Positions 261-63,463 of a stretch of 64,000 bases of DNA are shown here, in pieces. Source of the stretch: Parcubacteria group bacterium LiPW_30. Lineage in GTDB: Bacteria; Patescibacteriota; Minisyncoccia; Phycocordibacterales; VMEP01. Numbering within the stretch: the first letter of the stretch is position 1; each line of letters begins with the position of its first letter. Position numbers and translations under genes: made by a program. Location: the NCBI GenBank assembly GCA_007375595.1, contig VMEP01000001.1, positions 340,694 to 404,693 of the forward strand. The letters run 5' to 3'. The notes beneath the pieces were generated by a model, which saw nothing but the letters and a program-made list of their open reading frames with translations, did no database searches and was not told the DNA's origin.

Positions 261-339
261 TTTATCCTTAAAACAAAAAATCCCTACTTTTTATTAAGTA
301 GGGATTTTTGCAAGAAATAATAATAAAATCGACAATAAT

Positions 340-1011
340 ATGGCAAGTAAAAGAGAAATAAATTCTCAATATGACTTAATAGCCGAGGACTATGTAAATA
401 ACCAGAGGGGATTTTTTACAGGCAAGGATGATTGGACAAGGTCTAAGTTAAAACAGGAACTAAAAAAATACAAAGGAAAGAAAATTTTGGATATAGGATG
501 TGGCGCTGGGGACGATATCAAGTGGTGTGAGGAAAATGGAATTGAAGCATATGGCGTTGAGTATTCAGAAAAAATGCTCAATTTAGCTAAGAATAACGTT
601 GCATACCCCGAGAACGTAAAAATTGGTGATTATGAAAGTATTCCGTTTGATGATAATTACTTCGATTTAGTTATGGGAAGATTTTCTTTACATTATTTAA
701 AAAATTTTGAATTGGCGTATAAAGAAATAGGGCGTGTGTTAAAAAGTGGAGGACAGTTATTAATAGTGGCGAGTAATCCTACTTACGATACATTGAAACT
801 TCAGGAAACAGATGGGGATGGCTTAATTTCCGTTAATCTATATGGAGGCCGTGTTGTCGTTAAGTTTCCACCACATACGCTAACTGACTACTTCTCTCGG
901 GAATTTTTTAGGCAATTTGTTCTACAAGAAATTATAGAATCAGAATCTGTTGATGCAGAAAATCCACTGAAAATCCCCGAGACCTTATATTTTAAGGCGG
1001 TGAAATTATAA
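340..1011 (+). CDS. class I SAM-dependent methyltransferase
   Basis: glycine-rich motif I ILDIGCGAGDD; length and layout typical of Methyltransf_11/25. Confidence 0.7.
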   Translation: MASKREINSQYDLIAEDYVNNQRGFFTGKDDWTRSKLKQELKKYKGKKILDIGCGAGDDIKWCEENGIEAYGVEYSEKMLNLAKNNVAYPENVKIGDYESIPFDDNYFDLVMGRFSLHYLKNFELAYKEIGRVLKSGGQLLIVASNPTYDTLKLQETDGDGLISVNLYGGRVVVKFPPHTLTDYFSREFFRQFVLQEIIESESVDAENPLKIPETLYFKAVKL

Positions 1012-1119
1012 GTATCTTTATTTGACAAAACACTACTTTCCTGTTAATTTCAGGGCTGGTTTTAGTCCTGTTCCAATTTAAGTTTCTAAACTTTTTCACA
1101 CAGACAGAGGAGATTTTCC

Positions 1120-2607
1120 ATGGCACAACTTTCGCCCGTACGGGCAGGAGAACCGGTTCTTAAAGGCCTCAAGCTTTTGAACCGTGGCAAGGTGCGCGAC
1201 ACCTACGATCTCGGGAGCGGTTATCTACTCTCGGTTGCAACGGACGCAATCAGTATTTTTGATTTCGTTTTGAACGCAAAGGTTCCAGGAAAGGGAATGG
1301 TCTTGACGGCTATGACCCATTTCTGGATGACGAAACTCGAGGAAGCTGGTATCTGCAAGACACATCTCGTCGCCGCGGGTGCCGCAATTGACCACTACCT
1401 CCCGAAAGAGCATCAGGGGAACGTCGACTTGCAGTCTCGGGCGATGGTGGTGAAGCAACTCCAGATGGCTCCGGTCGAGTTCATCGCTCGCGGGTACCTG
1501 ACGGGGACGGCCTTCAAGGAATACCAGAAAACCGGCAAGGTTTTTGGGGTTGCTTTGCCATCTGATCTTCAAGATGGCGACAAGTTGCCGTGCGTTTTTG
1601 ACACTCCGACGACGAAAGAAGTCGAAGGGCACGACATTCCGATGAACAGCGAAGAGGTGCGGGTGAAATATCCCGAGGAAACAAAAACCTTGCTCGCAGT
1701 CTACGAGTTTGTGCGCAAGTTTGCCGAAGAGCACGGCGTCATTTTTGCCGACACCAAACTCGAGTTCGGGTTTGATGAAAAAGGCAACCTTGTCCTCGGC
1801 GACGAAGTGGCCACTCCGGACTCCAGTCGTTTCTGGAGTTTGATGGCATGGATGGCTGAGAAAAAGAAGGAAAAACGTAAGGCGCCATCGCCGTACGACA
1901 AGCAGTTGGTTCGAAACTGGGGAATCGAGGTCGGGGTGAATAATCTTGACCCGCTTTCTTCCGAAGATGTGGAAAAGGTTCACGGGATGGAAGTCCCCAA
2001 AGAGCTGATTACCGCGACTTCGGAGATGTATCGCTACATCTTCTGGTTGCTGACTGGCATGCGCGTTGATTCCTATGTCGCCTCGAAACTGAGGGTCGAC
2101 CGGGAAATACCGGCGCGGAAGCTGGCCGTGGTTTTTGGAAGTAGAAGCGACTACGCAAAGGCGGGAGTACAACTTGCTGTTGCTCAAAAGTACGTTGGGA
2201 ACCGGTTCCTCGGAAAGCTCGACGTTCATGTTTTGAGTTGCCACAGGAACCCGTTGTATCTCGTTGAGTTTGCGGGAAGCGGATGTCTTGGTGCAGATGT
2301 CGTCATCGCCGTCGGCGGAAAGGCATTTGCTTTGCCTGGGGTTCTCGATGCCCATCTTCATGCAGAAGGCTTTAGAATCCCCGTCATTGGTGTTGCTCTC
2401 GGCGAAGAAGGAAGCGAAGAGTTGCTTGCGGCAGAACTCTCGATTTCCCAGATACCAGGGCAGACGGTGCTCATGGACGAAAAGGCTGGTGTTGTCTACC
2501 GCAACACCGACGGCCTTTCAAGGGCTATCGTTCGGGCGACGTTCTCCGAATTGCCACCGATGCTTCCGCGGGTGGAAAAGAAACCGGAGTTTTTTATCAA
2601 GTCTTAA
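1120..2607 (+). CDS. purCE: bifunctional SAICAR synthetase / AIR carboxylase (PurC-PurE fusion, PAICS-like order)
   Basis: N-terminal half matches PurC (KVRDTYDL, LLSVATDAISIFDFVL); C-terminal half matches PurE (VVFGSRSDYA, GGKAFALPGV); region clearly more GC-rich than its surroundings. Confidence 0.8.
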   Translation: MAQLSPVRAGEPVLKGLKLLNRGKVRDTYDLGSGYLLSVATDAISIFDFVLNAKVPGKGMVLTAMTHFWMTKLEEAGICKTHLVAAGAAIDHYLPKEHQGNVDLQSRAMVVKQLQMAPVEFIARGYLTGTAFKEYQKTGKVFGVALPSDLQDGDKLPCVFDTPTTKEVEGHDIPMNSEEVRVKYPEETKTLLAVYEFVRKFAEEHGVIFADTKLEFGFDEKGNLVLGDEVATPDSSRFWSLMAWMAEKKKEKRKAPSPYDKQLVRNWGIEVGVNNLDPLSSEDVEKVHGMEVPKELITATSEMYRYIFWLLTGMRVDSYVASKLRVDREIPARKLAVVFGSRSDYAKAGVQLAVAQKYVGNRFLGKLDVHVLSCHRNPLYLVEFAGSGCLGADVVIAVGGKAFALPGVLDAHLHAEGFRIPVIGVALGEEGSEELLAAELSISQIPGQTVLMDEKAGVVYRNTDGLSRAIVRATFSELPPMLPRVEKKPEFFIKS

Positions 2608-2639
2608 TTGCCAGCAGGTTGGTAATCGAGCATACGGGC

Positions 2640-2712
2640 GGGTCGGTTCATTCTGACCCGTCTTTTTTTTTGTAAAAAAACAAGCGCCCATTACTAGGCG
2701 CTTGCGTTGATT
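2640..2712. terminator. two hairpins between the convergent purCE and purN genes
   Basis: cgggcgggtcggttcattctgacccgtc + T9, then caagcgcccattactaggcgcttg. Confidence 0.5.
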
Positions 2713-2720
2713 TGGAGACT

Positions 2721-3392
2721 CTATTCGTCAAAGGCCCGACCTGACATCATGCTGGGATAAACCGAGCGATGGTTCGCCCCATCCCAAGAGATGAACCCGT
2801 TGACTATCAGGTTGGTCACTTCTGCTTGATACATGTGCTCGCAGTGGTTGACGCGCTGTGCCAGAGTTTCCGGTGTGTCGTCGTCTTTGATGCACACTTT
2901 CATTTGGAAGAAGATTGGACCGAGGTCGTACTTCTCCGTAACGAAGTGCATCGAGACCGCAGAGTGTGAAATTTCACCACGGCGGAACGCCGCCATTACC
3001 GCTTCGTGAACACGGTGCCCATAAAGACCAGGGCCACCAAACTCCGGCAGGGGCCCAGGGTGAATATTGAACACCGTTTGCGAGTTGAAGTTCGTTCGCG
3101 GGTCAAGCCCAGTCACGAGCTTCAGCCAGCCAGAGAGAGCAAAAAAATCAGCCCCCGACTCCCTTGCGATACGTTGATACCCTTCAGCGTTCCATGGACC
3201 ACGGAAATGGATGAATGGGATATCAAGCTCTCCGGCCTTTTCCCAGACACCACCATTTTCGTGGTTTGAAACCACTCCGACAATCTTGGCATCAAGTATT
3301 CCTGTGCGCGATGCTTCCACGAGCTTCCTGAAACCACCGCCACCACCGTCTTTTGTGCCCGCCGCAAAAACGAGAGTCTTTGGTTTGCTCAT
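2721..3392 (-). CDS. purN: phosphoribosylglycinamide formyltransferase
   Basis: VFNIHPGPLPEFGG matches the PurN NIHPSLLP motif; Formyl_trans_N-like N-terminus; GC-rich. Confidence 0.8.
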   Translation of the reverse strand: MSKPKTLVFAAGTKDGGGGGFRKLVEASRTGILDAKIVGVVSNHENGGVWEKAGELDIPFIHFRGPWNAEGYQRIARESGADFFALSGWLKLVTGLDPRTNFNSQTVFNIHPGPLPEFGGPGLYGHRVHEAVMAAFRRGEISHSAVSMHFVTEKYDLGPIFFQMKVCIKDDDTPETLAQRVNHCEHMYQAEVTNLIVNGFISWDGANHRSVYPSMMSGRAFDE

Positions 3393-3519
3393 TTGCTACT
3401 CCTTTTTTGATGGGTTGTTCAATCTGCCGGCAAGTATCTCTTAAAAAAATATTTTTTGCAACCAAGTGCTTGCGCCGTCTTCTTTGAAGTTTGGTTTGGT
3501 TGTATAATGATAGCTAACC

Positions 3520-4677
3520 ATGAACTCAGAAGAACCAGTTGAAGTAGAAGTCTCCAATCAAGAGCAAATTGAAATTAAAGAAAAAAGAGCGCGAGAGATA
3601 GCAAATGGCGGGGTTTTTGAAAACATTGTCGAAGACCTATTTGACGAAAAACTACTTGAAGGGTGTATTGAAAAGACAAAAGAAGATTTTGGTGCACGTA
3701 TTAAAAACGCGCATTTTGAAGCAAAAGAAAAAGATTGGGAAATATTAACCGCAATACGATTATTTCATCTTGATACAGCAGAGCATTGTGTTCGTACCCT
3801 TGAAATTCTTTCACATAAAATACACGAAACTCTTACTCGTCCTGATGGAGGGAGTGTTAATCTCGACACAAACATTATTGCTGAAAATATAACCATTGAA
3901 GAATTTTTACGCGCAGCGTTACTTCATGATGTTGGTAAAATCATAGTTCCACGCTCAATTCTAGATAACCCTCTTTCGAATACTAATTGGTGGCAAGTAT
4001 TAAGCTTGGCGATTAATTCAGAAGGAGAAGACTCTGATTTAATTCGAAATCATATTGCTAAACTTTCCGGCGCTCCTTTTAATATCGATACATACAGAAA
4101 AGATCTCGATTCTCATGATGTGCGACCAATTCAGGTTTGTCCTGTTGATGTGATTCTTCCGCCAGAAGATATTTCTGATTTGGCTAAGCGCGGATTTACC
4201 AAAGAAAATACTATTTTGGAAATAATAATGGCACATGAGGAAGAATCACGTAGGATTTTAGAGGCGAGTGGTTTTCCTGTTGAGGCAAAACTTGCCAGTA
4301 TGCATCATAATTATTTACATAGAGATATTGGTGGGCAAAATTCTTCAGTTGAAGCTCTTCGTGTTGGGGCGGACGTTGTCGGTATTTCTATGGCAGATAT
4401 TATTCATCTCGCCGATGTTACCGACGCTCTTGTGAGTTCGCGCTCATACAAAGGGCCAATGCCAATATCGAAAGTACTCACTATTTTAATTCAACACGCA
4501 AATAGCGGTAAGGTTGGTAAAGAGATGACATATATGTGGATAAAAAGTGAGCTTTCAAAAAATAAAATTTCTGAAGACGAAAAAATGCAGTTTGCGGATG
4601 ATTTTAAAGAAATAAATTTATTTTTATCTAAGCAAGAAAAAGAAGCGCAAGTGGAGTTTATGGCGGAGGCAGCCTAA
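3520..4677 (+). CDS. HD-domain phosphohydrolase (HD/HD-GYP-like)
   Basis: AALLHDVGKIIVP His-Asp motif; further His-rich stretch MHHNYLHRD. Confidence 0.55.
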   Translation: MNSEEPVEVEVSNQEQIEIKEKRAREIANGGVFENIVEDLFDEKLLEGCIEKTKEDFGARIKNAHFEAKEKDWEILTAIRLFHLDTAEHCVRTLEILSHKIHETLTRPDGGSVNLDTNIIAENITIEEFLRAALLHDVGKIIVPRSILDNPLSNTNWWQVLSLAINSEGEDSDLIRNHIAKLSGAPFNIDTYRKDLDSHDVRPIQVCPVDVILPPEDISDLAKRGFTKENTILEIIMAHEEESRRILEASGFPVEAKLASMHHNYLHRDIGGQNSSVEALRVGADVVGISMADIIHLADVTDALVSSRSYKGPMPISKVLTILIQHANSGKVGKEMTYMWIKSELSKNKISEDEKMQFADDFKEINLFLSKQEKEAQVEFMAEAA

Positions 4678-4770
4678 AAATTATTCTAGACATTATGTTT
4701 AATATGTTTCATACTACCGAAAGTGACGTTCTTATGCATTGAATTTTATTTATTAAAAAGGGGGGCTACG

Positions 4771-5205
4771 ATGAGACGGCGAAGTTTTGACAGGAAGGTT
4801 TATCTCCTGGTGTTTGGATTTAATGACGATGAATGGGCCCATAGCGTCGAAGGGGAAAAATGTAGGCGTTGGTGCAAGGATTTAGGGTTTAGTGTTGAAA
4901 TTAAAGTGACCCCTTCCGTTGTTGAAACCATTAAGCACATAAGAGAACATAAAATGCTTGATTTGGTTTATTTTAGCGACAACAAGTCGTCTTCGCGCGG
5001 AGACCATGCCCTCTCTGATGCTATGGCTATTGCTCAGGTATTGAGCGAACATAGCCATAAACCATGGGTTGCCATTGCTCCAGTTTTCGATTACCTTTCC
5101 ACCGTATTTCGAGTGAGAGATGTCGTGGTTGGAGAGGGAGATCTTTTGAGTGTTGTTTGGTCGCGGTGGATGTCACTTGTGAAAGGATACAGACAAACAC
5201 CCTGA
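4771..5205 (+). CDS. hypothetical protein (start moved to MRRRSF after the RBS aaaaagggggg)
   Basis: ORF with good SD; no recognisable motif. Confidence 0.4.
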   Translation: MRRRSFDRKVYLLVFGFNDDEWAHSVEGEKCRRWCKDLGFSVEIKVTPSVVETIKHIREHKMLDLVYFSDNKSSSRGDHALSDAMAIAQVLSEHSHKPWVAIAPVFDYLSTVFRVRDVVVGEGDLLSVVWSRWMSLVKGYRQTP

Positions 5206-8359: not shown

Positions 8360-9031
8360 ATGGGGCGAATCAACGAACTTAACGATTTCACTCGGGGTCA
8401 ACTAGACGCCGCTTTGATGAAAATCGGGCAAGATGCTGGCATGGGAACAGCAGAAGGTATCCGTGCGTTTCTTCGCGGCGAACTCTCGATTTCCTCACCA
8501 CCTCGTTCGTGGCGTGAGGAAGACGGTGTCATCTACTTCAGCGTCACCCCTGATGGTGCGGACGGCGAAACTTGGATTACCTTACTAGAAGGCAATATTT
8601 TTCTTGTCGAATACTGTGCTAAAGAGGTACTCCGTTCGCCTTCTTTCAAGTCGACCAATGGCGTGACGACCGAAGTCGCTGTTCTCAAGGGAATGCTCTT
8701 CGAGGATCAATGTCGGATCACCGAGTTGATTCGCGCACATGCGGAAGCTTTCAGAACGCCCGACAAGCGCAAGCTCGAAAAGCCGAATGCTGAACTGGCT
8801 TGCCTCATTCGTCGGAAGTTCACAGATAAAGAGATCGAGGCTATGGGGCTGACATGTATTGTCGCCATGCACGAACCCATCAATGACTCCGACGGCAATC
8901 CGGGCTTGCTGAGCGCGCGCCGTGACGGCGGTGGTCGCTGGCTCAACGCGTACAACGGCAGATCTGACTGTAGGTGGGGCCGTGACCACGGGTTTGCGTT
9001 CGCCGTGTCGCAAGCCCGTCCGACTGAATGA
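8360..9031 (+). CDS. hypothetical protein in a GC-rich island
   Basis: Long ORF with SD gagaggag; composition sharply more GC-rich than flanks; no motif recognised. Confidence 0.5.
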   Translation: MGRINELNDFTRGQLDAALMKIGQDAGMGTAEGIRAFLRGELSISSPPRSWREEDGVIYFSVTPDGADGETWITLLEGNIFLVEYCAKEVLRSPSFKSTNGVTTEVAVLKGMLFEDQCRITELIRAHAEAFRTPDKRKLEKPNAELACLIRRKFTDKEIEAMGLTCIVAMHEPINDSDGNPGLLSARRDGGGRWLNAYNGRSDCRWGRDHGFAFAVSQARPTE

Positions 9032-17122: not shown

Positions 17123-17950
17123 GTGCGTTCAGATATCTCCTCTGCTACAATGTCGCGCATGGAAAGCGAACTTATTTCTTTTTCAAACCACAAAAAAGAA
17201 ACTCTCCGTGGAATTTTCAAACGAGCCCCAGGGAGTACGGGGGTAATTTTTGCCCACGGTTTTGGTAGGACCTCCATGGAGCCAAAGTTCAAAAATATTG
17301 CCAACAAATTGGAAGGCAAGGAGAATCTTTTCTTTTTTGATTTTTCTGGATGTGGGCTATCTGAGGGGTCTTTTGAAGATATTACCGCAGATAAGCTCGC
17401 CAAGGAGCTTTCATGCGCCGTTTCTGCGTTTCGCGATAGGGTCCCAAGACTAAAAAGTATCCGGTTGGTTTCTCATAGTTTTGCTTGTGCTGCAACAATT
17501 ATTTTATGCGCACGAGAAAAAGATGTTTTTGACAAAATTGTATTTTTGGGACCAGCCCTTAACATGAGTGAGATTTTAAAATATTCCTTTGTAAGACGAC
17601 GTAATCCCGGCGGGAAAATTAACTGGTCAAACTATAAAAAACATTTTGATTTGCGGGCATATCAACGCGAAATGAAGAAAGATAAGCAAATGACTTATTC
17701 TCATTTTATTTCTAATCTTCACTATCTTGAAAATAAAGATAGAGATTACCGAGAATTAATGGGAATAATTCCAAAAGAAAAACTACTTATTGTTCAGGGT
17801 GATAGCGACAGGTCAATCCCACTTGAAAGTCAGGGCGCTTATTTAAAGAATTTTAAAACGATATTAGTTAAAGGAGGGGATCATGATCTTGAAAGACCTG
17901 ATGTGGTTGCAAAATACTTACCGCAAATAGTTTCTTTCCTGTCTTCTTAA
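17123..17950 (+). CDS. alpha/beta-hydrolase fold protein
   Basis: GVIFAHGFG oxyanion region; nucleophile-elbow-like LVSHSFACAA; Asp/His later. Confidence 0.55.
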   Translation: MRSDISSATMSRMESELISFSNHKKETLRGIFKRAPGSTGVIFAHGFGRTSMEPKFKNIANKLEGKENLFFFDFSGCGLSEGSFEDITADKLAKELSCAVSAFRDRVPRLKSIRLVSHSFACAATIILCAREKDVFDKIVFLGPALNMSEILKYSFVRRRNPGGKINWSNYKKHFDLRAYQREMKKDKQMTYSHFISNLHYLENKDRDYRELMGIIPKEKLLIVQGDSDRSIPLESQGAYLKNFKTILVKGGDHDLERPDVVAKYLPQIVSFLSS

Positions 17951-18004
17951 TGTATAAAAACGGCGGAGCGCGAAATGTTGACAAATACTGCGTTTAGGTG
18001 TATA

Positions 18005-18120
18005 GTACTAGAGAGGTTCTTTGAATTATAACTTGCGTTTGCCACAGCAGAAAGTGGCTTAATATATAGGCCTTTTTCTGCTATGGCAAACCTTCGCACG
18101 AAGGAGCCCTCTAGTACACA
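18005..18120 (+). promoter_or_regulatory. long imperfect hairpin (~115 nt) immediately upstream of the RBS of the 18133 gene
   Basis: gtactagagagg...ccctctagtac outer stem; gtttgccacagcagaaag...ctttttctgctatggcaaac inner stem. Confidence 0.35.
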
Positions 18121-18132
18121 AGGAGAAAGACA

Positions 18133-18771
18133 ATGGGACAAATCACCATCGACCAATCCCATCAGGTTCTTGCCACTCTGGCTGTGAATACTGACTGGAC
18201 AACGATTGACTTCACGAACTCGGGGCTTCAGGATTTCATCGTTCGCAACCCGAAGGAAGCTGGCAGACAGTTCACGGCGTTCCTCAAGAACGGCGGGAAG
18301 GTCCTCGTCGGCGAACCGAAGGTCATCACCATCAAACGTGGTCGCTTCAATCCAACCGAGTTCATCGGACAGGGCTGGAGCATCATTACGGACGAGACGG
18401 ACACTCGTTCCACGGCGCTCACCGAACTGGACCTCACCAAGATTCAGCAGGTGACGATGCTCAAGAGCGGCGAGACGTACGTGAAGGGCGAGGAGAAGCT
18501 CAGGCGTCTGAAGAAGTCGGGCAACATCCGACTGGACGCCGACGTCTTCCACACGCTGTGGGAGAACCAGCATCTCATCCCCGAGTCGTGGAAGGAGAAG
18601 GTGAACGGGAACACTCGGTTCATCTACTTTGACGGCACGGTCCTTCGGGACTCGGACGGTAGCCGTTACGTTCTGTACCTGTATTGGAGTGACGGTGCGT
18701 GGAACTGGTACGTGGGTTGGCTCGGCAACGACTGGTACGATCACAACCCGTCTGCCGTTCTCGCAAGTTAG
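18133..18771 (+). CDS. hypothetical protein (GC-rich) with a Trp/Tyr-rich C-terminal module
   Basis: SD aaggagaaagaca; C-terminus RYVLYLYWSDGAWNWYVGWLGNDWYDHNPSAVLAS is duplicated at 19128-19253. Confidence 0.5.
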   Translation: MGQITIDQSHQVLATLAVNTDWTTIDFTNSGLQDFIVRNPKEAGRQFTAFLKNGGKVLVGEPKVITIKRGRFNPTEFIGQGWSIITDETDTRSTALTELDLTKIQQVTMLKSGETYVKGEEKLRRLKKSGNIRLDADVFHTLWENQHLIPESWKEKVNGNTRFIYFDGTVLRDSDGSRYVLYLYWSDGAWNWYVGWLGNDWYDHNPSAVLAS

Positions 18772-19111
18772 TACTCGGGCTTTGGTCATTGGCACTTTTT
18801 GGAGCCTTTGACCTTTGTCTTCGGACCCTGCATCTGCTTACACAGATGTGCAGGGTCTTTTCGTATATAAAAATATCTATATAATAATTTGTGGCAGTAG
18901 GTGGATATCAGTGCGTGTTTACGGATGCGTACCACCGAACCCAGTATCCTTATATCCAGAGTATTTGAGATTACGGTTTCAGATAGCGTGGTGTATGTCA
19001 GACACTTCAAAAAATGAAGCTACTTGGTATAGCGTATTAAGGCATTACAATGCCGAAGACAGTGGAACACCCACAGACAACCTTGAGAGTATTCGAGGGG
19101 TGGTGATATGG

Positions 19112-24491: not shown

Positions 24492-25406
24492 TCATTTCGC
24501 TTTTGCGGGAACGAGCTTGAGCCACCGGATTGAAACGAACTCGTAGTTGACGAAGCCGAGTACTGCCCCGACGACCGCACCGAGGACGGCGCTTCCGAGG
24601 GAGAAACCGACGACAGCACCAAGCGTTGCGTCGACGAAACAGAGCGTTCGGCGTTCGGAATGAACGTAAACGAAAGTCCGCACGACGAAACGCCAGGTCT
24701 CCCTGCAGAGGAAATAGGCTAGCGTGACGATGGCGTCCATGATGCGCGCCTTATTTTCCCAGAGATACTCGCCGACACCGCAAAGCGTGTGCGCGAAGAG
24801 CCACAACAGAAAAAACGGCAGGATGATTGGGTTGCCGTATTTGAAGACGAGCAACCCCATGGACATATCACGAGAGAGAAATTCTTGGTACGAGCCTTTT
24901 GTGTCGTAGTCCAATTTTTGCCAGTATTTTTTCTTGTTGGTGAACGGCCAGAAAAGCGCGCCGACGACCAACATGGTCGTAACAAGATAGAAACCGACCC
25001 CCACCCCAGAAATGAGACTGTGAACCACAGGCTCATTTTCTGGGGCGGGCCACTCGAGGTAAGAAAATATTGCGTGGGACATCAAGGCGAAAGACGTTGC
25101 GAGCGCCAAAAGCCCCAACACCGACGCAGCCGTCGCTTTCCAATACAGCGGATATCGCTTCCATGTGGTTGCCCTATGGTACGCACTAGCGACATTGCCG
25201 GCGCTTACGCGATACGAACGGGCGACACCGGCGCAGAAGTTCTGGAAGTCCACCGCACAGTAGGCAACAAGACCGCCGAAGATCGCGCCGACACCCCAGA
25301 AGTACGAGCCGTACTCGAAGCGCGCCGAGATTTCAATGGCGCTTAAGGCACCAATAAAGGCGCCAAGAGCACAGGCAAACATTACGGACAAAGATTCCTT
25401 TTTCAT
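24492..25406 (-). CDS. hypothetical integral membrane protein (GC-rich island)
   Basis: SD ggagg + ATG (MKKESL); multiple TM helices; GC-rich. Confidence 0.5.
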   Translation of the reverse strand: MKKESLSVMFACALGAFIGALSAIEISARFEYGSYFWGVGAIFGGLVAYCAVDFQNFCAGVARSYRVSAGNVASAYHRATTWKRYPLYWKATAASVLGLLALATSFALMSHAIFSYLEWPAPENEPVVHSLISGVGVGFYLVTTMLVVGALFWPFTNKKKYWQKLDYDTKGSYQEFLSRDMSMGLLVFKYGNPIILPFFLLWLFAHTLCGVGEYLWENKARIMDAIVTLAYFLCRETWRFVVRTFVYVHSERRTLCFVDATLGAVVGFSLGSAVLGAVVGAVLGFVNYEFVSIRWLKLVPAKAK

Positions 25407-25540
25407 GGTGTTCCTCCATTCGTTTAGGTTGTGACTCACTAACAAAGAGCCGATTTAACACGTTTACTGTCTCGTAACGTATAACGTTTACAGATCTTTG
25501 TCAACGCACCAAAAAAGTATGCTAAAATACGGCTCAATTT

Positions 25541-57760: not shown

Positions 57761-58294
57761 ATGGCATTTCTAGTACCAGACGAGATTATAAAAAGCCTTC
57801 CTCTTGAAAACGGAATGATAGTTGCAGATATAGGAGCCGGCTCTGGTGCGTTTGCAATTCCTCTTGCTCGCAATGTTGGTGATGGTGGTAAGGTCTATGC
57901 AATTGATATAAACAAAGAAGTCTTGGTTAAGATAAAAAAGGATGCAAAAGAAGCCAACCTTTCAAACGTAGAAATTATTTGGGCAAATGCTGAGGTTAAA
58001 GACGGAACGAAGCTTTCCGATAATTCAGTTGATTTTGTTTTAGTCTCCAATCTTCTTTTCCAGGCAGAAGATAAAAAAGGTTTAGTTGAAGAGATTAGCC
58101 GAATCCTAAAACCAAAAGGAATGATTGCAGTTATAGAATGGAAGGGGTCATTTGGCGGGATTGGTCCAAAAGAGAGCGCAGTCGTTAGCGAAAGCGAAGC
58201 GCAGAAACTTTTTAGTGATTCTTTGTTTGCGGAGTATAATAAATTTAACGCCGGAGATTATCATTACGGGGTTGTTTTTGTAAAAATTAAATGA
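57761..58294 (+). CDS. class I SAM-dependent methyltransferase
   Basis: motif I VADIGAGSGAFAIPLA; acidic residue after beta2. Confidence 0.65.
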   Translation: MAFLVPDEIIKSLPLENGMIVADIGAGSGAFAIPLARNVGDGGKVYAIDINKEVLVKIKKDAKEANLSNVEIIWANAEVKDGTKLSDNSVDFVLVSNLLFQAEDKKGLVEEISRILKPKGMIAVIEWKGSFGGIGPKESAVVSESEAQKLFSDSLFAEYNKFNAGDYHYGVVFVKIK

Positions 58295-59595
58295 AACCTT
58301 TTCAAATTATTGTTCTCTTGATTTTTGGTGTTTTCCTAGTAATTGGAGTGCTTATTTTTTCTGGGATTATAAAACTTCCCGGTGGTGGTGATAATAGTGG
58401 TGTTTCTGGTGAGGTTGTTATTTGGGGAACACTACCTAATTCGTATTTTGATAAATTATTGAGCGATTTTAATTTGGCCCACCAAAAGGAATCTTTCTCG
58501 GTTCGCTATGTAGAAAAAGACAAAACAACATTTGATAATGATTTAGTTGAGGCGATAGCAGCGAACGTTGGCCCAGATTTGGTGTTTTTGCCACAAGATT
58601 TAATTTTGAGACACGTTAGTAAAATATATCCGCTCCCATTAACAACAATTTCCGAGCGCGATTTCAAAGATATGTTTATTGAAGAGGGGGAATTATTCTT
58701 CTTTAATGGAAACGCGATTGCAATACCGTTTACGATTGATCCAATAATGCTTTATTGGAATCGGGATTCTTTTTCGGCGGCTGGTTTTTCCAAACCACCA
58801 CAATACTGGGAAGAGTTTATGGCTATAGTTCCACAACTAACAACCAAAGATAGCGCCACCAATATCACCAAAAGTGCGCTTGCTTTTGGTGAAGCAAAAA
58901 ATATTTTAAACGCGAAAGACATTTTATCGATGCTCATAATGCAAGCGGGGAGTAAAATAGTCGCATATTCTCCGGAGAAAGGAGTTGAGGTTTCTTTAGG
59001 TCAAAATAACACAAGTGGACTTAGGGCGGGCGAAGCAGCACTCCAGTTTTATACCGAGTTTTCTAATCCTGTTAAGCAACATTATTCTTGGAATAAATCA
59101 CTTCCATCCTCTCGAAATATGTTTTTGTCGGGAGATTTAGCTATGTACTTTGGATATGCAAGTGAAATTTTGGATTTGAGGGCACGCAACCCGCATTTGA
59201 ATTTTGATGTTGCGATGGTCCCACAGTCAAAAGGTGTTAATAAAAAAATAACGTTCGGAAGAATGCACGGACTCGCAGCTCTTAAGAGTTCAAAGAATTT
59301 AACCACAGCGCTTTATGTCGAGGTTCTTTTGTCTCAAGCTGATTTTATGAAGAATATTCCGGAGCGTTCTTACCTACCGCCAACTCGCCGTGATTTACTT
59401 CAAGTTCGACCTTCCGATCCGTATCTTTCTATTTTTTATGATTCAGCCATTATTTCAAACGCATGGCTTGATCCAGCGCCAAAGGAAACAACAGCTATTT
59501 TTGCTAGTATGATTGATAACGTTGTTTCAGGTAGATTCAGACCACAAGAAGCCGTTTCCGATACCGCCTCACAATTAGAAAAACTTGTAAAATAA
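58291..59595 (+). CDS. extracellular solute-binding protein (ABC-transporter SBP-like), membrane-anchored
   Basis: N-terminal TM anchor, about 430 aa, alpha/beta pattern typical of SBP_bac_1/8; weak. Confidence 0.45.
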   Translation: MKPFQIIVLLIFGVFLVIGVLIFSGIIKLPGGGDNSGVSGEVVIWGTLPNSYFDKLLSDFNLAHQKESFSVRYVEKDKTTFDNDLVEAIAANVGPDLVFLPQDLILRHVSKIYPLPLTTISERDFKDMFIEEGELFFFNGNAIAIPFTIDPIMLYWNRDSFSAAGFSKPPQYWEEFMAIVPQLTTKDSATNITKSALAFGEAKNILNAKDILSMLIMQAGSKIVAYSPEKGVEVSLGQNNTSGLRAGEAALQFYTEFSNPVKQHYSWNKSLPSSRNMFLSGDLAMYFGYASEILDLRARNPHLNFDVAMVPQSKGVNKKITFGRMHGLAALKSSKNLTTALYVEVLLSQADFMKNIPERSYLPPTRRDLLQVRPSDPYLSIFYDSAIISNAWLDPAPKETTAIFASMIDNVVSGRFRPQEAVSDTASQLEKLVK

Positions 59596-59598
59596 AAT

Positions 59599-60006
59599 AT
59601 GAAAATAAGTAAAAATTTTTGGATAGCGAGAAAAATAGCAATTACTACGTTTGTGGCATTTGTGATTTTTTCACCGCTTACTGTTTTAGGGGCAGGGCTT
59701 GTTCCTTGTGACGGTGTTAATGTTAAGTGTGACTACAATCAGCTAGTTATGCTTGCTCAAAAAATTATTAGATTTTTACTTGAGGCGTCTGTGATTATTG
59801 CGATGCTTTTATTTACTTATGCTGGGTTCCAATTAGCATTTAGTGGTGGAGATACAGGTGCTATGGCAAAAGCTAAAGCAGTATTTTTTAGCGCAGCAAA
59901 AGGTTTAATTATTGCACTTGCGGCTTGGCTTATTGTTGAGACAATTCTTAGAGTGCTTCTTAAGGGTGAAGGTTTTGGACAATATATTCCGCTTGGGGGT
60001 TTTTAA
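59599..60006 (+). CDS. pilin-like small membrane protein (VirB2/TrbC-like topology), paralogue 1 of 5
   Basis: signal/TM segment, hydrophilic spacer, then two TM helices separated by a short loop. Confidence 0.45.
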   Translation: MKISKNFWIARKIAITTFVAFVIFSPLTVLGAGLVPCDGVNVKCDYNQLVMLAQKIIRFLLEASVIIAMLLFTYAGFQLAFSGGDTGAMAKAKAVFFSAAKGLIIALAAWLIVETILRVLLKGEGFGQYIPLGGF

Positions 60007-60019
60007 TGTATAATTATTT

Positions 60020-60439
60020 ATGAATAATTTAAACTTAAATAAATTGACGAAAAGAATTCAAACGAAGAAGTTTTATACTTTATTGGCAGCAAGCCTAGTT
60101 ATCTTTTTTGCTGTTTTGACTCCTTTATTTGTTGACGCTCAGACGGCGAGTGGGCAGAGAGAAGCTACAAAATTACAAAATCCACTTGGCAGTGGTAACG
60201 ACAGTCTCACTGCTTTTGCTAACTCTGTTGTTGATGCTGTGGTTACTGTTGGCTTACCAATTGCCGCGTTAATGATTGTTTACTCTGGTTTTCTTTTTGT
60301 TGCAGCAAGGGGGAATGAAACCAAGCTTAAAGACGCAAAAAATGCTTTCCTTTATGCTGTTATCGGTATTGCTATAATTTTGGCTGCAAAAGTTTTATCG
60401 GAGGTTATAAGGGGAACAATAGACGCCTTAAGAGGTTGA
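60020..60439 (+). CDS. pilin-like small membrane protein, paralogue 2
   Basis: same architecture; signal peptide ending VDA|QT; TM1 VVTVGLPIAALMIVYSGFLFV, TM2 LYAVIGIAIILAAKVL. Confidence 0.45.
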   Translation: MNNLNLNKLTKRIQTKKFYTLLAASLVIFFAVLTPLFVDAQTASGQREATKLQNPLGSGNDSLTAFANSVVDAVVTVGLPIAALMIVYSGFLFVAARGNETKLKDAKNAFLYAVIGIAIILAAKVLSEVIRGTIDALRG

Positions 60440-60452
60440 TTAATAAATAATT

Positions 60453-60866
60453 ATGAAAATTATGAAAAAGGGAAATTTTTTAGTTTTGGGGTTGTTAGGG
60501 TTAGTAATGGTTCCGTCGGTTGTGTATGGAATCTCTAGTTTGACTGGTCTTATAGAGTTCCTTACAAATTCTATAATTATGCCAATCATTGGGCTTATTG
60601 GCGCACTTGCTGTTTTATTTTTCTTGTGGGGAGTTATGAAGTTTATTAAAGATGCAGACAATGAAACTAAGAGGGCTGAAGGACGACAATTCATACTTTA
60701 CGGCATTATTGGGCTTTTTGTTATGGTCTCTGTTTACGGTCTTGTTAGGGTTTTGGAAAATACCTTCCAGTTACCGGTTACTAATAATTCGACGAGAAAC
60801 ACAAATGTGGTAAATACAACGGCGCCGGGTGCGACATATAATAACCGCAACGCTCAAATGGAATAA
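60453..60866 (+). CDS. pilin-like small membrane protein, paralogue 3
   Basis: shares FILYGIIGLFVMVSVYGLVRVLENTF block with paralogues 4 and 5; N/T-rich C-terminal tail. Confidence 0.45.
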   Translation: MKIMKKGNFLVLGLLGLVMVPSVVYGISSLTGLIEFLTNSIIMPIIGLIGALAVLFFLWGVMKFIKDADNETKRAEGRQFILYGIIGLFVMVSVYGLVRVLENTFQLPVTNNSTRNTNVVNTTAPGATYNNRNAQME

Positions 60867-61027
60867 TTGTAAAGTTATTGAACTGTTAGGGTGACCATGA
60901 TGTTGAAATGGCGGCTTGGCTAATGATTCTTTTATCCCCAGACTAGTCGGAAAAAGAAGCAGTCTTGTGTTAAAATAAGAGAGAATTTAATAAAGTCGTT
61001 TAATTAGTATTAATTTTTAGAAATATA

Positions 61028-61444
61028 TTGCGTATGAAAAAAGTAGTTACATTAGTAGCAGCATCAGCACTTCCTGTAGTTGCTCTTGCTCAGACAGTAG
61101 ATGCCATTTTTAGTAAGATTATAACGCTCATTAATTACCTAACGATTATTGTTGTGGCGTTATCTGTTTTGGCGTTTTTCTGGGGTTTGTTTAAGTTTAT
61201 TACCAAGGCAGGAGAAGACAAAGAGGAGGGTCGCCACATAATGATTTGGGGAATCCTCGCACTATTTGTTATGGTTTCTGTTTGGGGTCTTGTTGGTGTT
61301 GTCGGGAATACTTTCGGTGTGCAACAAGGAGGAGCAGTTAATATCCCAGGCATCGGTGGTTCTTACGGCGGTGTTAATACTGGTGGTACTGGAGTTTCTG
61401 GGGGAGTTAATGTCACAGGTGGTATTAATATTCCAATTCGATAA
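61028..61444 (+). CDS. pilin-like small membrane protein, paralogue 4 (Gly-rich C-terminal tail)
   Basis: IMIWGILALFVMVSVWGLVGVVGNTFG block; tail GGAVNIPGIGGSYGGVNTGGTGVSGGVNVTGG. Confidence 0.45.
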   Translation: MRMKKVVTLVAASALPVVALAQTVDAIFSKIITLINYLTIIVVALSVLAFFWGLFKFITKAGEDKEEGRHIMIWGILALFVMVSVWGLVGVVGNTFGVQQGGAVNIPGIGGSYGGVNTGGTGVSGGVNVTGGINIPIR

Positions 61445-62356: not shown

Positions 62357-63463
62357 TCATTTCTTAGGGAAAAGGCTAGTGAGGAAGTTGGCGACTGCGT
62401 TCATCCCTTCGCCTCTTATTTCCTGAACATTGTGTTGAATGGTTTTGGTGGTATTTTTATTGACCACCAGCGCCGCTTCCATTGCTTCCGCATCGGTAAT
62501 CGGCTTACCACCATCCGCGCCTTTTTCTTGAAGCGTTTTGGCTGTTTCCTTGATCTTCTTTGCGGTTTCTCTCGCAGACAACGCCTGTTGAAACACAGGG
62601 TCATAGTCGACGTCGGAAATTGCAACGAGAATCAGGTCAATGCCGTACTTCTCTTCATACGAAGCGAGCTTGGGATCCTCGTGCCTTTCAAGCGCTTCCC
62701 TCCTTTCCTTGTCGAGAGCGTTTATGGACTTGAGATACTCGTCAATTTTTTTGATTACAAGCTTCTCCCGTTTTTTTCTGACTTCTTCCTCGGTGCCACC
62801 GGGCAATGTTGCGGGCATCTGCAGGTCCAAGGACAACTCATGTTCATAGTGACCCTTCATGCAACCTTCAATGCGCTTGATGTTTTTTCGAGCAGTTTCG
62901 GCGGTGAGGTTGGCAATAATCTGCGCGAGAAAACTCGAGCCGATGTCATGCAAACCGCGATCAATCACTGTCTTGTCGACGGCGATATACTTGCCGATAT
63001 TGCCCTTCATTCCCCGGTACTGGAAACTCCACACCACATGGAGCATTACGCCGTCGAGGGCGGGATATGTTTCCCCTTTCTCGAATTCTTTGGCGAATAT
63101 CCTCAGGTTTATGTAGTTTCCAGACTTTGTTTGTTCCCAAGGGTACTTGAAATGAATCCCCGTTGGGTATTCTTTGAGCTCTCCACCGAAAAGATTGACC
63201 GTAATAAGTGAGGTCACTTCGGGGACGGACACAAGAAAGTAGGGAAGGAAATGGCTTACGGCTAAGAGCCAGAAGCCGAACGAAAACCAACTGTTGTATT
63301 TTTGGAACAGCATCATGCCAAGTTCGTTGAAAACTAAACCAAGCAGAAGGTTGATGACCAAATACACAACTACTGAAAACGACAACAGAAAAGTAATTTC
63401 TGGTGCCTTTTCCCAGCGGAACAGGTTGACTGGTCCGTCTTTTGAAACAGTGGTAGTAGCCAT
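62357..63463 (-). CDS. SPFH/band-7 (stomatin/HflK/C-like) domain membrane protein
   Basis: N-terminal TM helices; GIHFKYPW and KYGIDLILVAISDVDYDPVFQQALSARETA match SPFH blocks; coiled-coil C-terminus. Confidence 0.65.
   Translation of the reverse strand: MATTTVSKDGPVNLFRWEKAPEITFLLSFSVVVYLVINLLLGLVFNELGMMLFQKYNSWFSFGFWLLAVSHFLPYFLVSVPEVTSLITVNLFGGELKEYPTGIHFKYPWEQTKSGNYINLRIFAKEFEKGETYPALDGVMLHVVWSFQYRGMKGNIGKYIAVDKTVIDRGLHDIGSSFLAQIIANLTAETARKNIKRIEGCMKGHYEHELSLDLQMPATLPGGTEEEVRKKREKLVIKKIDEYLKSINALDKERREALERHEDPKLASYEEKYGIDLILVAISDVDYDPVFQQALSARETAKKIKETAKTLQEKGADGGKPITDAEAMEAALVVNKNTTKTIQHNVQEIRGEGMNAVANFLTSLFPKK

Follow-up and report, generated by a model that had tools for sequence, protein, structure and literature searches.

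A GC-rich PurC-PurE fusion gene and its PurN-type neighbour in Patescibacteria: probable members of a scattered de novo purine pathway

The window analysed here, 64,000 nucleotides of the genome of Parcubacteria group bacterium LiPW_30 (contig VMEP01000001.1 of assembly GCA_007375595.1, positions 340,694 to 404,693 of the forward strand), contains near its left end an open reading frame (ORF) of 495 codons plus stop (1120..2607, + strand) in which phosphoribosylaminoimidazole-succinocarboxamide (SAICAR) synthetase, PurC, is joined to a PurE-family domain. This purC-purE fusion gene faces a gene for a PurN-type formyltransferase, and both were taken in an earlier note on this DNA for a horizontally acquired, partial purine salvage or biosynthesis module. 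The locus thus raises the question whether these two genes are a self-contained module or parts of a complete pathway, and how they came by a base composition unlike that of their surroundings. The explanation that we favor, with a probability of about 0.7, is that a bifunctional fusion and PurN are, in a groundwater genome of the Paceibacteria type, lineage-typical genes of a scattered de novo pathway which owe their high GC content to exchange among Patescibacteria. The PurE-fold domain is predicted to make CAIR (4-carboxy-5-aminoimidazole ribonucleotide) from 5-aminoimidazole ribonucleotide (AIR), or from N5-carboxyaminoimidazole ribonucleotide (N5-CAIR), and the PurC domain to ligate aspartate to CAIR with adenosine triphosphate (ATP), yielding SAICAR, such that the unstable CAIR would be made, consumed and perhaps channelled on one polypeptide. 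The convergent gene is predicted to encode the folate-dependent transformylase of glycinamide ribonucleotide (GAR), PurN. The high GC content of both genes would stem from gene exchange among Patescibacteria of differing GC content, with an acquisition or allele replacement that probably preceded the split of the window from two related contigs, L004 and L002 (comparison loci are cited by such labels throughout), and with the genes not yet drifted to the composition of the host; a second replacement can be seen directly in a sister genome, L005.

The earlier note had described an ORF with PurC followed by PurE in a single frame, and this description is confirmed, with both Pfam domains matched. 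The N-terminal two-thirds of the protein can be confidently assigned to SAICAR synthetase: the PurC domain (1120..2073, + strand; about amino acids 1-318) matches PF01259 with 193 bits (cut-off 20) and the NCBIfam equivalog NF010568 with 263.6 bits (cut-off 251), the latter over amino acids 13-315 and model positions 9-295 of 297. The divergent PurE-fold domain (2116..2604, + strand; about amino acids 333-495) matches PF00731 with 40.8 bits (cut-off 30) and aligns with class I PurEs of the PDB, motifs included, at E-values of 6e-6 to 1e-3; this is a real yet weak match to the PurE family in sequence, and the predicted structure confirms the fold. The AlphaFold2 model, made from 47 homologues, is confident over both domains and the linker (predicted local distance difference test score, 93.2; predicted template modelling score, 0.92). 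The best Foldseek matches of its N-terminal half are yeast Ade1 (1OBG, 2CNQ) and Mycobacterium abscessus PurC (6YVQ), with target-normalised template modelling (TM) scores of 0.83-0.86 and 33-36% identity, and the PurE half matches class I PurE structures with a TM score of about 0.68 and 24-31% identity. Because the identical protein of 495 amino acids is encoded on four independent contigs and at least 120 homologues are collinear with it, the fusion is not an artefact: PurC and PurE are joined in frame, and the frameshift or stop between the halves that the earlier note had named as a possible refutation is absent. Two of these contigs, L094 (from an SRA run) and L095 (from Hainich groundwater), stem from separate samples, and their DNA is 99% identical to that of the window. 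A Shine-Dalgarno-like GAGGAG (1107..1112, + strand), located 7 nucleotides 5' of the ATG at 1120, presumably serves translation of the fusion gene.

A search of 5.8 billion proteins with the fusion produced 722 matches, the best 120 of which are 460-512 amino acids long, cover 93-100% of the query, contain both Pfam domains and are 49-95% identical to it. All names supplied by the sources for these best 120 belong to Patescibacteria (Paceibacterota, Adlerbacteria, Minisyncoccia, 'Patescibacteria group'). The previous description of the fusion as rare in bacteria is therefore true in general but not for Patescibacteria, where, with at least 120 full-length homologues, it is the norm. Similarly, the domain order is PAICS-like as had been claimed, PurC preceding PurE, but the resemblance to the animal enzyme is convergent, with 17% identity and a whole-chain root mean square deviation (rmsd) of about 14 Å; across the PAICS structures 6YB8, 4JA0 and 2H31, the whole-chain Foldseek alignments show 17-19% identity, an rmsd of 13-15 Å and TM scores of 0.32-0.46. 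Human PAICS (2H31, 6YB8) and the fusion have in common both predicted activities, their order from the N- to the C-terminus, and the making and use of labile CAIR on one chain, whereas the PurC half of the window protein is of the long yeast/actinobacterial type rather than the PAICS type and the PurE half is devoid of the class II signature (SAHK, AGRSNGLGP). Because each half is nearer to free-standing microbial enzymes, and human and insect PAICS align only loosely across both domains, the fusion can be taken to have an origin separate from that of animal PAICS and the shared order to be convergent. Adjacent purC and purE genes, as in L009 and L027, are common in ordinary bacteria and therefore offer an obvious route to fusion; the gene in question probably derives from such a pair. 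In the literature, we found nothing specific on a bacterial PurC-PurE fusion or on purK in Patescibacteria.

A scan of genome contigs with the fusion protein alone yielded only two loci. A metagenome scan with the family alignment, keyed on the conserved PurC core, returned mostly ordinary purC loci, which provided the controls for the typing of PurE loops and for the adjacency of PurK. L009 and L027 were considered as distant fusions and rejected, purC and purE being separate adjacent genes in both. A protein of 402 amino acids, P0369, shows the reverse order, PurE-like followed by PurC, with an apparently truncated C-terminus, which suggests more than one fusion event between PurC and PurE domains.

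The PurE half was compared with both classes of the enzyme by aligning the fusion to Escherichia coli K-12 PurE and the solved class I enzymes, with class II residues taken from the active-site lists of human PAICS (PMC9376930, PMC10484210) and paired across the loops as we infer. At E. coli position 46, class I enzymes have Arg46, human PAICS has Lys304 and the fusion Arg376; at position 72, the respective residues are Gly72, Arg331 and Lys401, and at position 75, His75, Gly334 and Ala404. The catalytic histidine is conserved in both PurE classes (His45 in E. coli, His303 in human PAICS; PMC9376930), and its counterpart in the fusion is His375. The recognizable motifs of the domain are G340-S-R-S-D344, S373-C374-H375-R376-N377-P378, G399-G400-K401-A402-F403-A404-L405-P406-G407, a PVIGVALG block and an LSIxxLPGQ block. 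Among the 47 homologues (50-88% identity), G340, S341, D344, S373, H375 and R376 are invariant, S343 is retained in 42, and G399, A402, G407 and both blocks are invariant or nearly so; Ala404 occupies the His75 position in 43 of the 47. The fusion has the AIRC fold and, as in class I, GSxSD in the P-loop and S-x-H-R in the 40s loop; it does not have the class I 70s loop, A-G-G-A-A-H-L-P-G with His75, the corresponding loop reading G-G-K-A-F-A-L-P-G. The class II signature (40s loop SAHK, 70s loop AGRSNGLGP) is not found either, Arg376 replacing the lysine, while, if the motifs are correctly aligned, the basic Lys401 (at Arg331) and the small Ala404 (at Gly334) are class II-like. The residue check proposed in the earlier note accordingly gave a divided answer: His375 and Arg376 of class I are kept, Lys401 resembles class II, and Ala404 replaces His75. 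The signature of the domain is thus mixed, one defining feature of each class being absent, and the domain is closest to class I. Class I PurEs (E. coli 1QCZ, Staphylococcus aureus 3ORS) are its best match in both sequence and structure. Common to both are GSxSD, an SxHR motif that includes Arg46, a 70s loop ending in LPG, and the blocks PVIGV and LSIxxxPG; the differences are the changes of His75 to Ala404, Gly72 to Lys401, Ala74 to Phe403 and Ala44 to Cys374, as well as the fusion to PurC in the window protein.

Free-standing PurEs that similarly have no His75 (an 'AALPG' loop) are encoded next to ordinary purC genes in eight metagenome loci, L012 (8185-8682), L009, L013, L044, L046, L062, L077 and L081. 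The PurE of L012, AAAGKAAALPGV, also has Lys72 (a K72/A75 loop) and is part of a purD-purE-purB-purC cluster. These 'Ala75' proteins resemble the fusion in the 70s loop without His75, in the Lys72 of some of them and in their link to purC; they differ in being unfused, in having SAHR rather than the SCHR of the fusion, and in their identity to E. coli PurE, which is 44-52%, compared with about 36% for the fusion domain. The PurE domain of the Patescibacteria fusion is more divergent than the free-standing 'Ala75' forms. In an exhaustive HMMER scan of 1.84 billion representative sequences with this domain, only 180 proteins reached E<=1e-3; full-length fusions account for about 36 of these, and many of the others are free-standing proteins of 160-190 amino acids. 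No match to E. coli PurK was obtained by tblastn in the window or in the searched fusion loci (up to 10 kb per side, about 20 kb per genome); the same search detects purK beside PurEs with the canonical AAHLPG loop in L024 and L027. Likewise, no PurK was detected at the 'AALPG' PurE loci within the sequence at hand (up to 10 kb per side). PurEs that fit neither class are known to exist (Brown et al., PMC3261824). With Arg46 as in class I, a basic residue at position 72 reminiscent of class II, and no His75, the domain might be a PurE of a third kind in functional terms, one that carboxylates AIR without PurK and hands CAIR to PurC; the whole would then be an independent bacterial invention of PAICS type, spread as a GC-rich cassette swapped among ultra-small Patescibacteria. 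This is a tentative proposal that we regard as possible rather than likely. We know of no biochemical characterisation of the 'Ala75' subtype.

The PurN-type gene (2721..3392, - strand; 223 amino acids) converges on the fusion gene, as had been noted before, across a gap of 113 nucleotides with one terminator-like hairpin per strand. The hairpin 3' of purC-purE (2636..2673 with its T-run, + strand; hairpin 2636-2663) has a stem of 11 bp, 7 of them GC, and then a run of T9; that 3' of the purN-like gene (2674..2705, - strand; hairpin 2705-2680) has a stem of the same length, in which 6 pairs are GC, and then a run of T7. The encoded protein contains a single Formyl_trans_N domain (PF00551, 65 bits) and matches PurN structures in the PDB with E-values down to 1e-14, and its N109-I-H111 (the N109-x-H111 motif) and D156 line up with NIHP and D-x-GP in PurNs of known structure. 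It thus shares with PurN of E. coli (1C2T) and Coxiella burnetii (3TQR) the one-domain architecture of about 220 amino acids and the catalytic Asn-x-His and Asp, and orthologues of the window gene adjoin purM and purL in L091 and L092; the differences are an altered and longer N-terminal loop (GTKDGGGGGF), a short insertion past the NIHP motif, and a score under the TIGR00639 cut-off. The homologues (1769 matches) make up a highly conserved subfamily found across Patescibacteria, with 63-70% identity over Komeili-, Berkel-, Wildermuth- and Andersenbacteria; all names supplied by the sources are those of Patescibacteria groups. No riboswitch or other regulatory RNA was found near either gene, Rfam giving sub-threshold chance matches alone, and a consensus scan of positions 900-3700 around both genes found no sigma-70-type promoter.

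Pfam scans of most other long ORFs of the window, those at 57761-61444 left out, detected housekeeping or unknown functions and, along with the tblastn searches reported below, bear out the earlier statement that the window encodes no other pur genes. Partners of the pair are encoded nearby in other Patescibacteria. The purH gene is located directly upstream of the fusion in L003; purM is downstream of it in L086, with PRPP (phosphoribosyl pyrophosphate) synthetase nearby; and a purN-like orthologue (63-68% identity) is flanked by purM and a purL of 1276 amino acids in both L091 and L092, the latter also with purB nearby, an adjacency absent from the window itself. In L087, L088 and L089, the fusion is solitary, surrounded by ribosomal or pilus genes, and scattered pur genes can therefore be considered normal. 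PurN catalyzes step 3 of the pathway (GAR to formylglycinamide ribonucleotide) and PurC-PurE steps 6-7 (AIR to SAICAR), with two steps in between. Because these steps are not consecutive, a stand-alone or salvage module of two genes makes little metabolic sense. Synthesis of inosine monophosphate (IMP) from PRPP has been reported for Paceibacteria (PMC9166423), and the complete de novo IMP module is present in 32% of 399 genomes of the candidate phyla radiation assembled from metagenomes (PMC11608272). Given the non-consecutive steps, the orthologues beside purM, purL, purB and purH, and these surveys, the self-contained partial or salvage module of the earlier note is not borne out, and the most suitable reading of the pair is that of two scattered, lineage-typical genes of the de novo pathway, the rest of which, judging from the relatives and the literature, would be encoded in the source genome. 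A protein of 196 amino acids that consists of the MGS domain only is encoded in L089 (1883-2473), 8 kb from the fusion; its identity to the IMP cyclohydrolase part of L003 PurH, which is N-terminal, is 36%, and it may be a stand-alone IMP cyclohydrolase.

In base composition, both genes clearly differ from their AT-rich flanks, as the earlier note had observed. The GC content of the two coding sequences is 0.53, compared with a window mean of 0.40, and at third codon positions (GC3) it is 0.61 in purC-purE and 0.58 in the purN-like gene, compared with about 0.31 in the neighbours and 0.26-0.35 in most housekeeping genes of the window, including those for LepA, GyrA and FtsZ (0.29-0.32) and aminoacyl-tRNA synthetases. 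The enrichment is limited to the two coding sequences and sharp at the gene boundaries. The GC3 excess recurs in the orthologues of L002, L004, L005, L086 and L087, whereas in L003, L088 and L089 the composition of the fusion gene equals that of the host. The first 14 kb of the window are collinear with L002 (a 476-kb Paceibacterota contig, about 74% nucleotide identity) and L004 (about 85%), and in both the divergence of purCE (the fusion gene) and purN keeps step with that of the flanking genes. The pair is also syntenic in L005, in which the flanking proteins are 97-99% identical to those of the window, whereas PurC-PurE is only 66% identical; at the DNA level, identity is down to 57-77% between positions of about 1021 and about 2800, and the purCE allele of L005 is an outgroup to those of the window, L004 and L002. 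A replacement of the orthologous purCE allele, essentially confined to the gene, is thus directly visible in L005. Four-fold degenerate sites of the window and L002 are 0.51 identical, compared with 0.27 expected at saturation; being unsaturated, they are such that a GC-rich allele gained before the split from L002 could still be drifting to the host composition. Horizontal exchange of purCE among related strains therefore appears plausible, alongside the vertical signal from L002 and L004. From the earlier claim of horizontal acquisition, exchange can be retained, given the GC3 outliers and the L005 allele; a recent, isolated islet cannot, the pair being syntenic in L004 and L002.

Several observations weigh against the reading of the pair as exchanged genes of a scattered de novo pathway. 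The PurE half scores 32 bits against the purE equivalog TIGR01162 and does not reach the cut-off of 149.6, so that the earlier description of both halves as complete holds for the full-length PurC and overstates what the sequence shows of the PurE half; moreover, the His75-containing 70s loop is missing. The best equivalog for the PurN-like protein is PurN TIGR00639, with 79.9 bits under a cut-off of 150.1, and its N-terminal phosphate-binding loop deviates (DGGGGGF instead of GxGSNLQ). The tblastn searches of the 64-kb window found none of purH, purM, purL, purB and PRPP synthetase. No donor lineage was identified: the purCE gene of the window is 57% identical to that of the GC-rich L089 and the native neighbour, an M13 peptidase gene, 60%, a comparison that is uninformative on the donor and places purCE no nearer to L089 than the native gene. 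Finally, selection for GC-rich codons in both genes is a live alternative to transfer.

The low score against TIGR01162 and the replacement of His75 would suit a PurE-like half that is a non-catalytic scaffold, for instance an oligomerisation core, in a protein that is only PurC, as NCBI names the homologues; the 180 matches among 1.84 billion representatives could be read in the same way. The (near-)invariance of the ligand-binding and catalytic motifs, His375 included, in 47 homologues of 50-88% identity, the free-standing Ala75-loop PurEs in pur operons (L012, L009), and the active class II enzymes, which also have no His75, with Gly334 in its place (PMC9376930), make this very improbable. 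That the two genes are a partial module, acquired horizontally by a genome without the rest of the pathway, and handle salvaged intermediates (AIR or its riboside) from a host, is improbable as well. It agrees with the otherwise housekeeping content of the pur-poor window, with the compositional deviation of both genes and with the frequent description of Patescibacteria as lacking nucleotide synthesis (introduction of PMC12455944), but two enzymes separated by two steps cannot work as a unit, the orthologues occur among purM, purL, purB and purH or, as with the fusion in L087, L088 and L089, scattered elsewhere too, IMP synthesis is reported for Paceibacteria, and pair and flanks have been passed on together ever since the lineage parted from that of L002.

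The origin of the composition is a separate matter. Selection or gene-specific bias acting on vertically inherited genes, rather than transfer, would be compatible with the excess common to the syntenic orthologues of L002, L004 and L005 and to L086 and L087, with a divergence of purCE from L002 and L089 that parallels that of the native M13 peptidase, and with the missing donor. A GC3 twice the genome level is, however, far past the usual expression-linked codon bias, as the values for LepA, GyrA and FtsZ illustrate; the gene has host-like GC in L003, L088 and L089; the other GC-rich ORFs of the window are orphans, one of them (8360-9031) an insertion relative to L005 and L002; and the L005 allele replacement demonstrates that exchange occurs at this locus. 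We therefore consider this alternative unlikely, though deserving of attention. A retained ancestral ('frozen') GC content is kept within it, and the half-conserved four-fold sites do not tell the explanations apart. The sharp GC shift at the gene boundaries might also suggest an assembly chimera, with foreign reads in an AT-rich contig; this is refuted by the same arrangement at 99% identity in L094 and L095, assembled independently from different samples, and by its presence in L002, L004 and L005.

Additional GC-rich ORFs of the window (GC3 0.49-0.67) are located at 8360-9031, 17947-18795, 24492-25445 and 62357-63463. The first three have no match in Pfam or PHROGs, and a phage origin of these ORFs finds no support, PHROGs having yielded no matches. 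The ORF at 62357-63463 contains a Band_7 domain, and that at 24492-25445 looks like a multi-pass membrane protein. The segment 8159-9124, which includes ORF 8360-9031, is absent in L005 and L002, whereas L094 and L095, contigs of the same species, contain it.

Strain variation is also apparent close to the pair. A variable insertion site (311..1020, no strand assigned) is located about 100 nucleotides upstream of purC-purE between flanks of 97.5-99% identity; it is occupied by a gene for a class I methyltransferase dependent on S-adenosylmethionine (340-1011, Pfam) in the window and by unrelated DNA of about 1 kb, containing small ORFs, in L094 (6660-7683), and is empty in L095 (4931-4944) and L005. 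An inverted repeat of 40 nucleotides (271-310) abuts the junction. The stretch at 3520-5205, located between the GGACT gene and purN, contains a gene for an HD-domain protein (3520-4677) and an ORF of 160 amino acids (4723-5205). Both occur also in L004 and L005 and are absent in L002; their products are 87-92% identical between the window and L005, compared with 97-99% for genes further to the right. Because the genes in 3520-5205 vary in presence and are less conserved relative to L005, the region from 1 to 5.3 kb looks like a recombination-prone part of the window. Elsewhere, the DnaB helicase of another Patescibacteria genome (L090, 3794-6493) is annotated by Pfam as containing an intein with a LAGLIDADG endonuclease.

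What is new here is modest: an independent PurC-PurE fusion, a PurE domain of neither class, and a cassette-like exchange among close relatives; the gene functions themselves are ordinary and typical of the lineage. The locus adds to the evidence that a part of Patescibacteria has retained purine synthesis de novo, from genes that are scattered and, in this case, exchanged between strains. The unstable CAIR would be handled on a single polypeptide as in animals, by a protein of independent origin with a PurE variant that belongs to neither textbook class. Public annotation names these fusions PurC only, and surveys of pathway completeness may therefore miss the PurE step. If the PurE variant works without PurK, one ATP would be saved per purine in cells that are very limited in energy, and the division between class I and class II, which is the rationale for targeting PurE with antibacterials, would be blurred.

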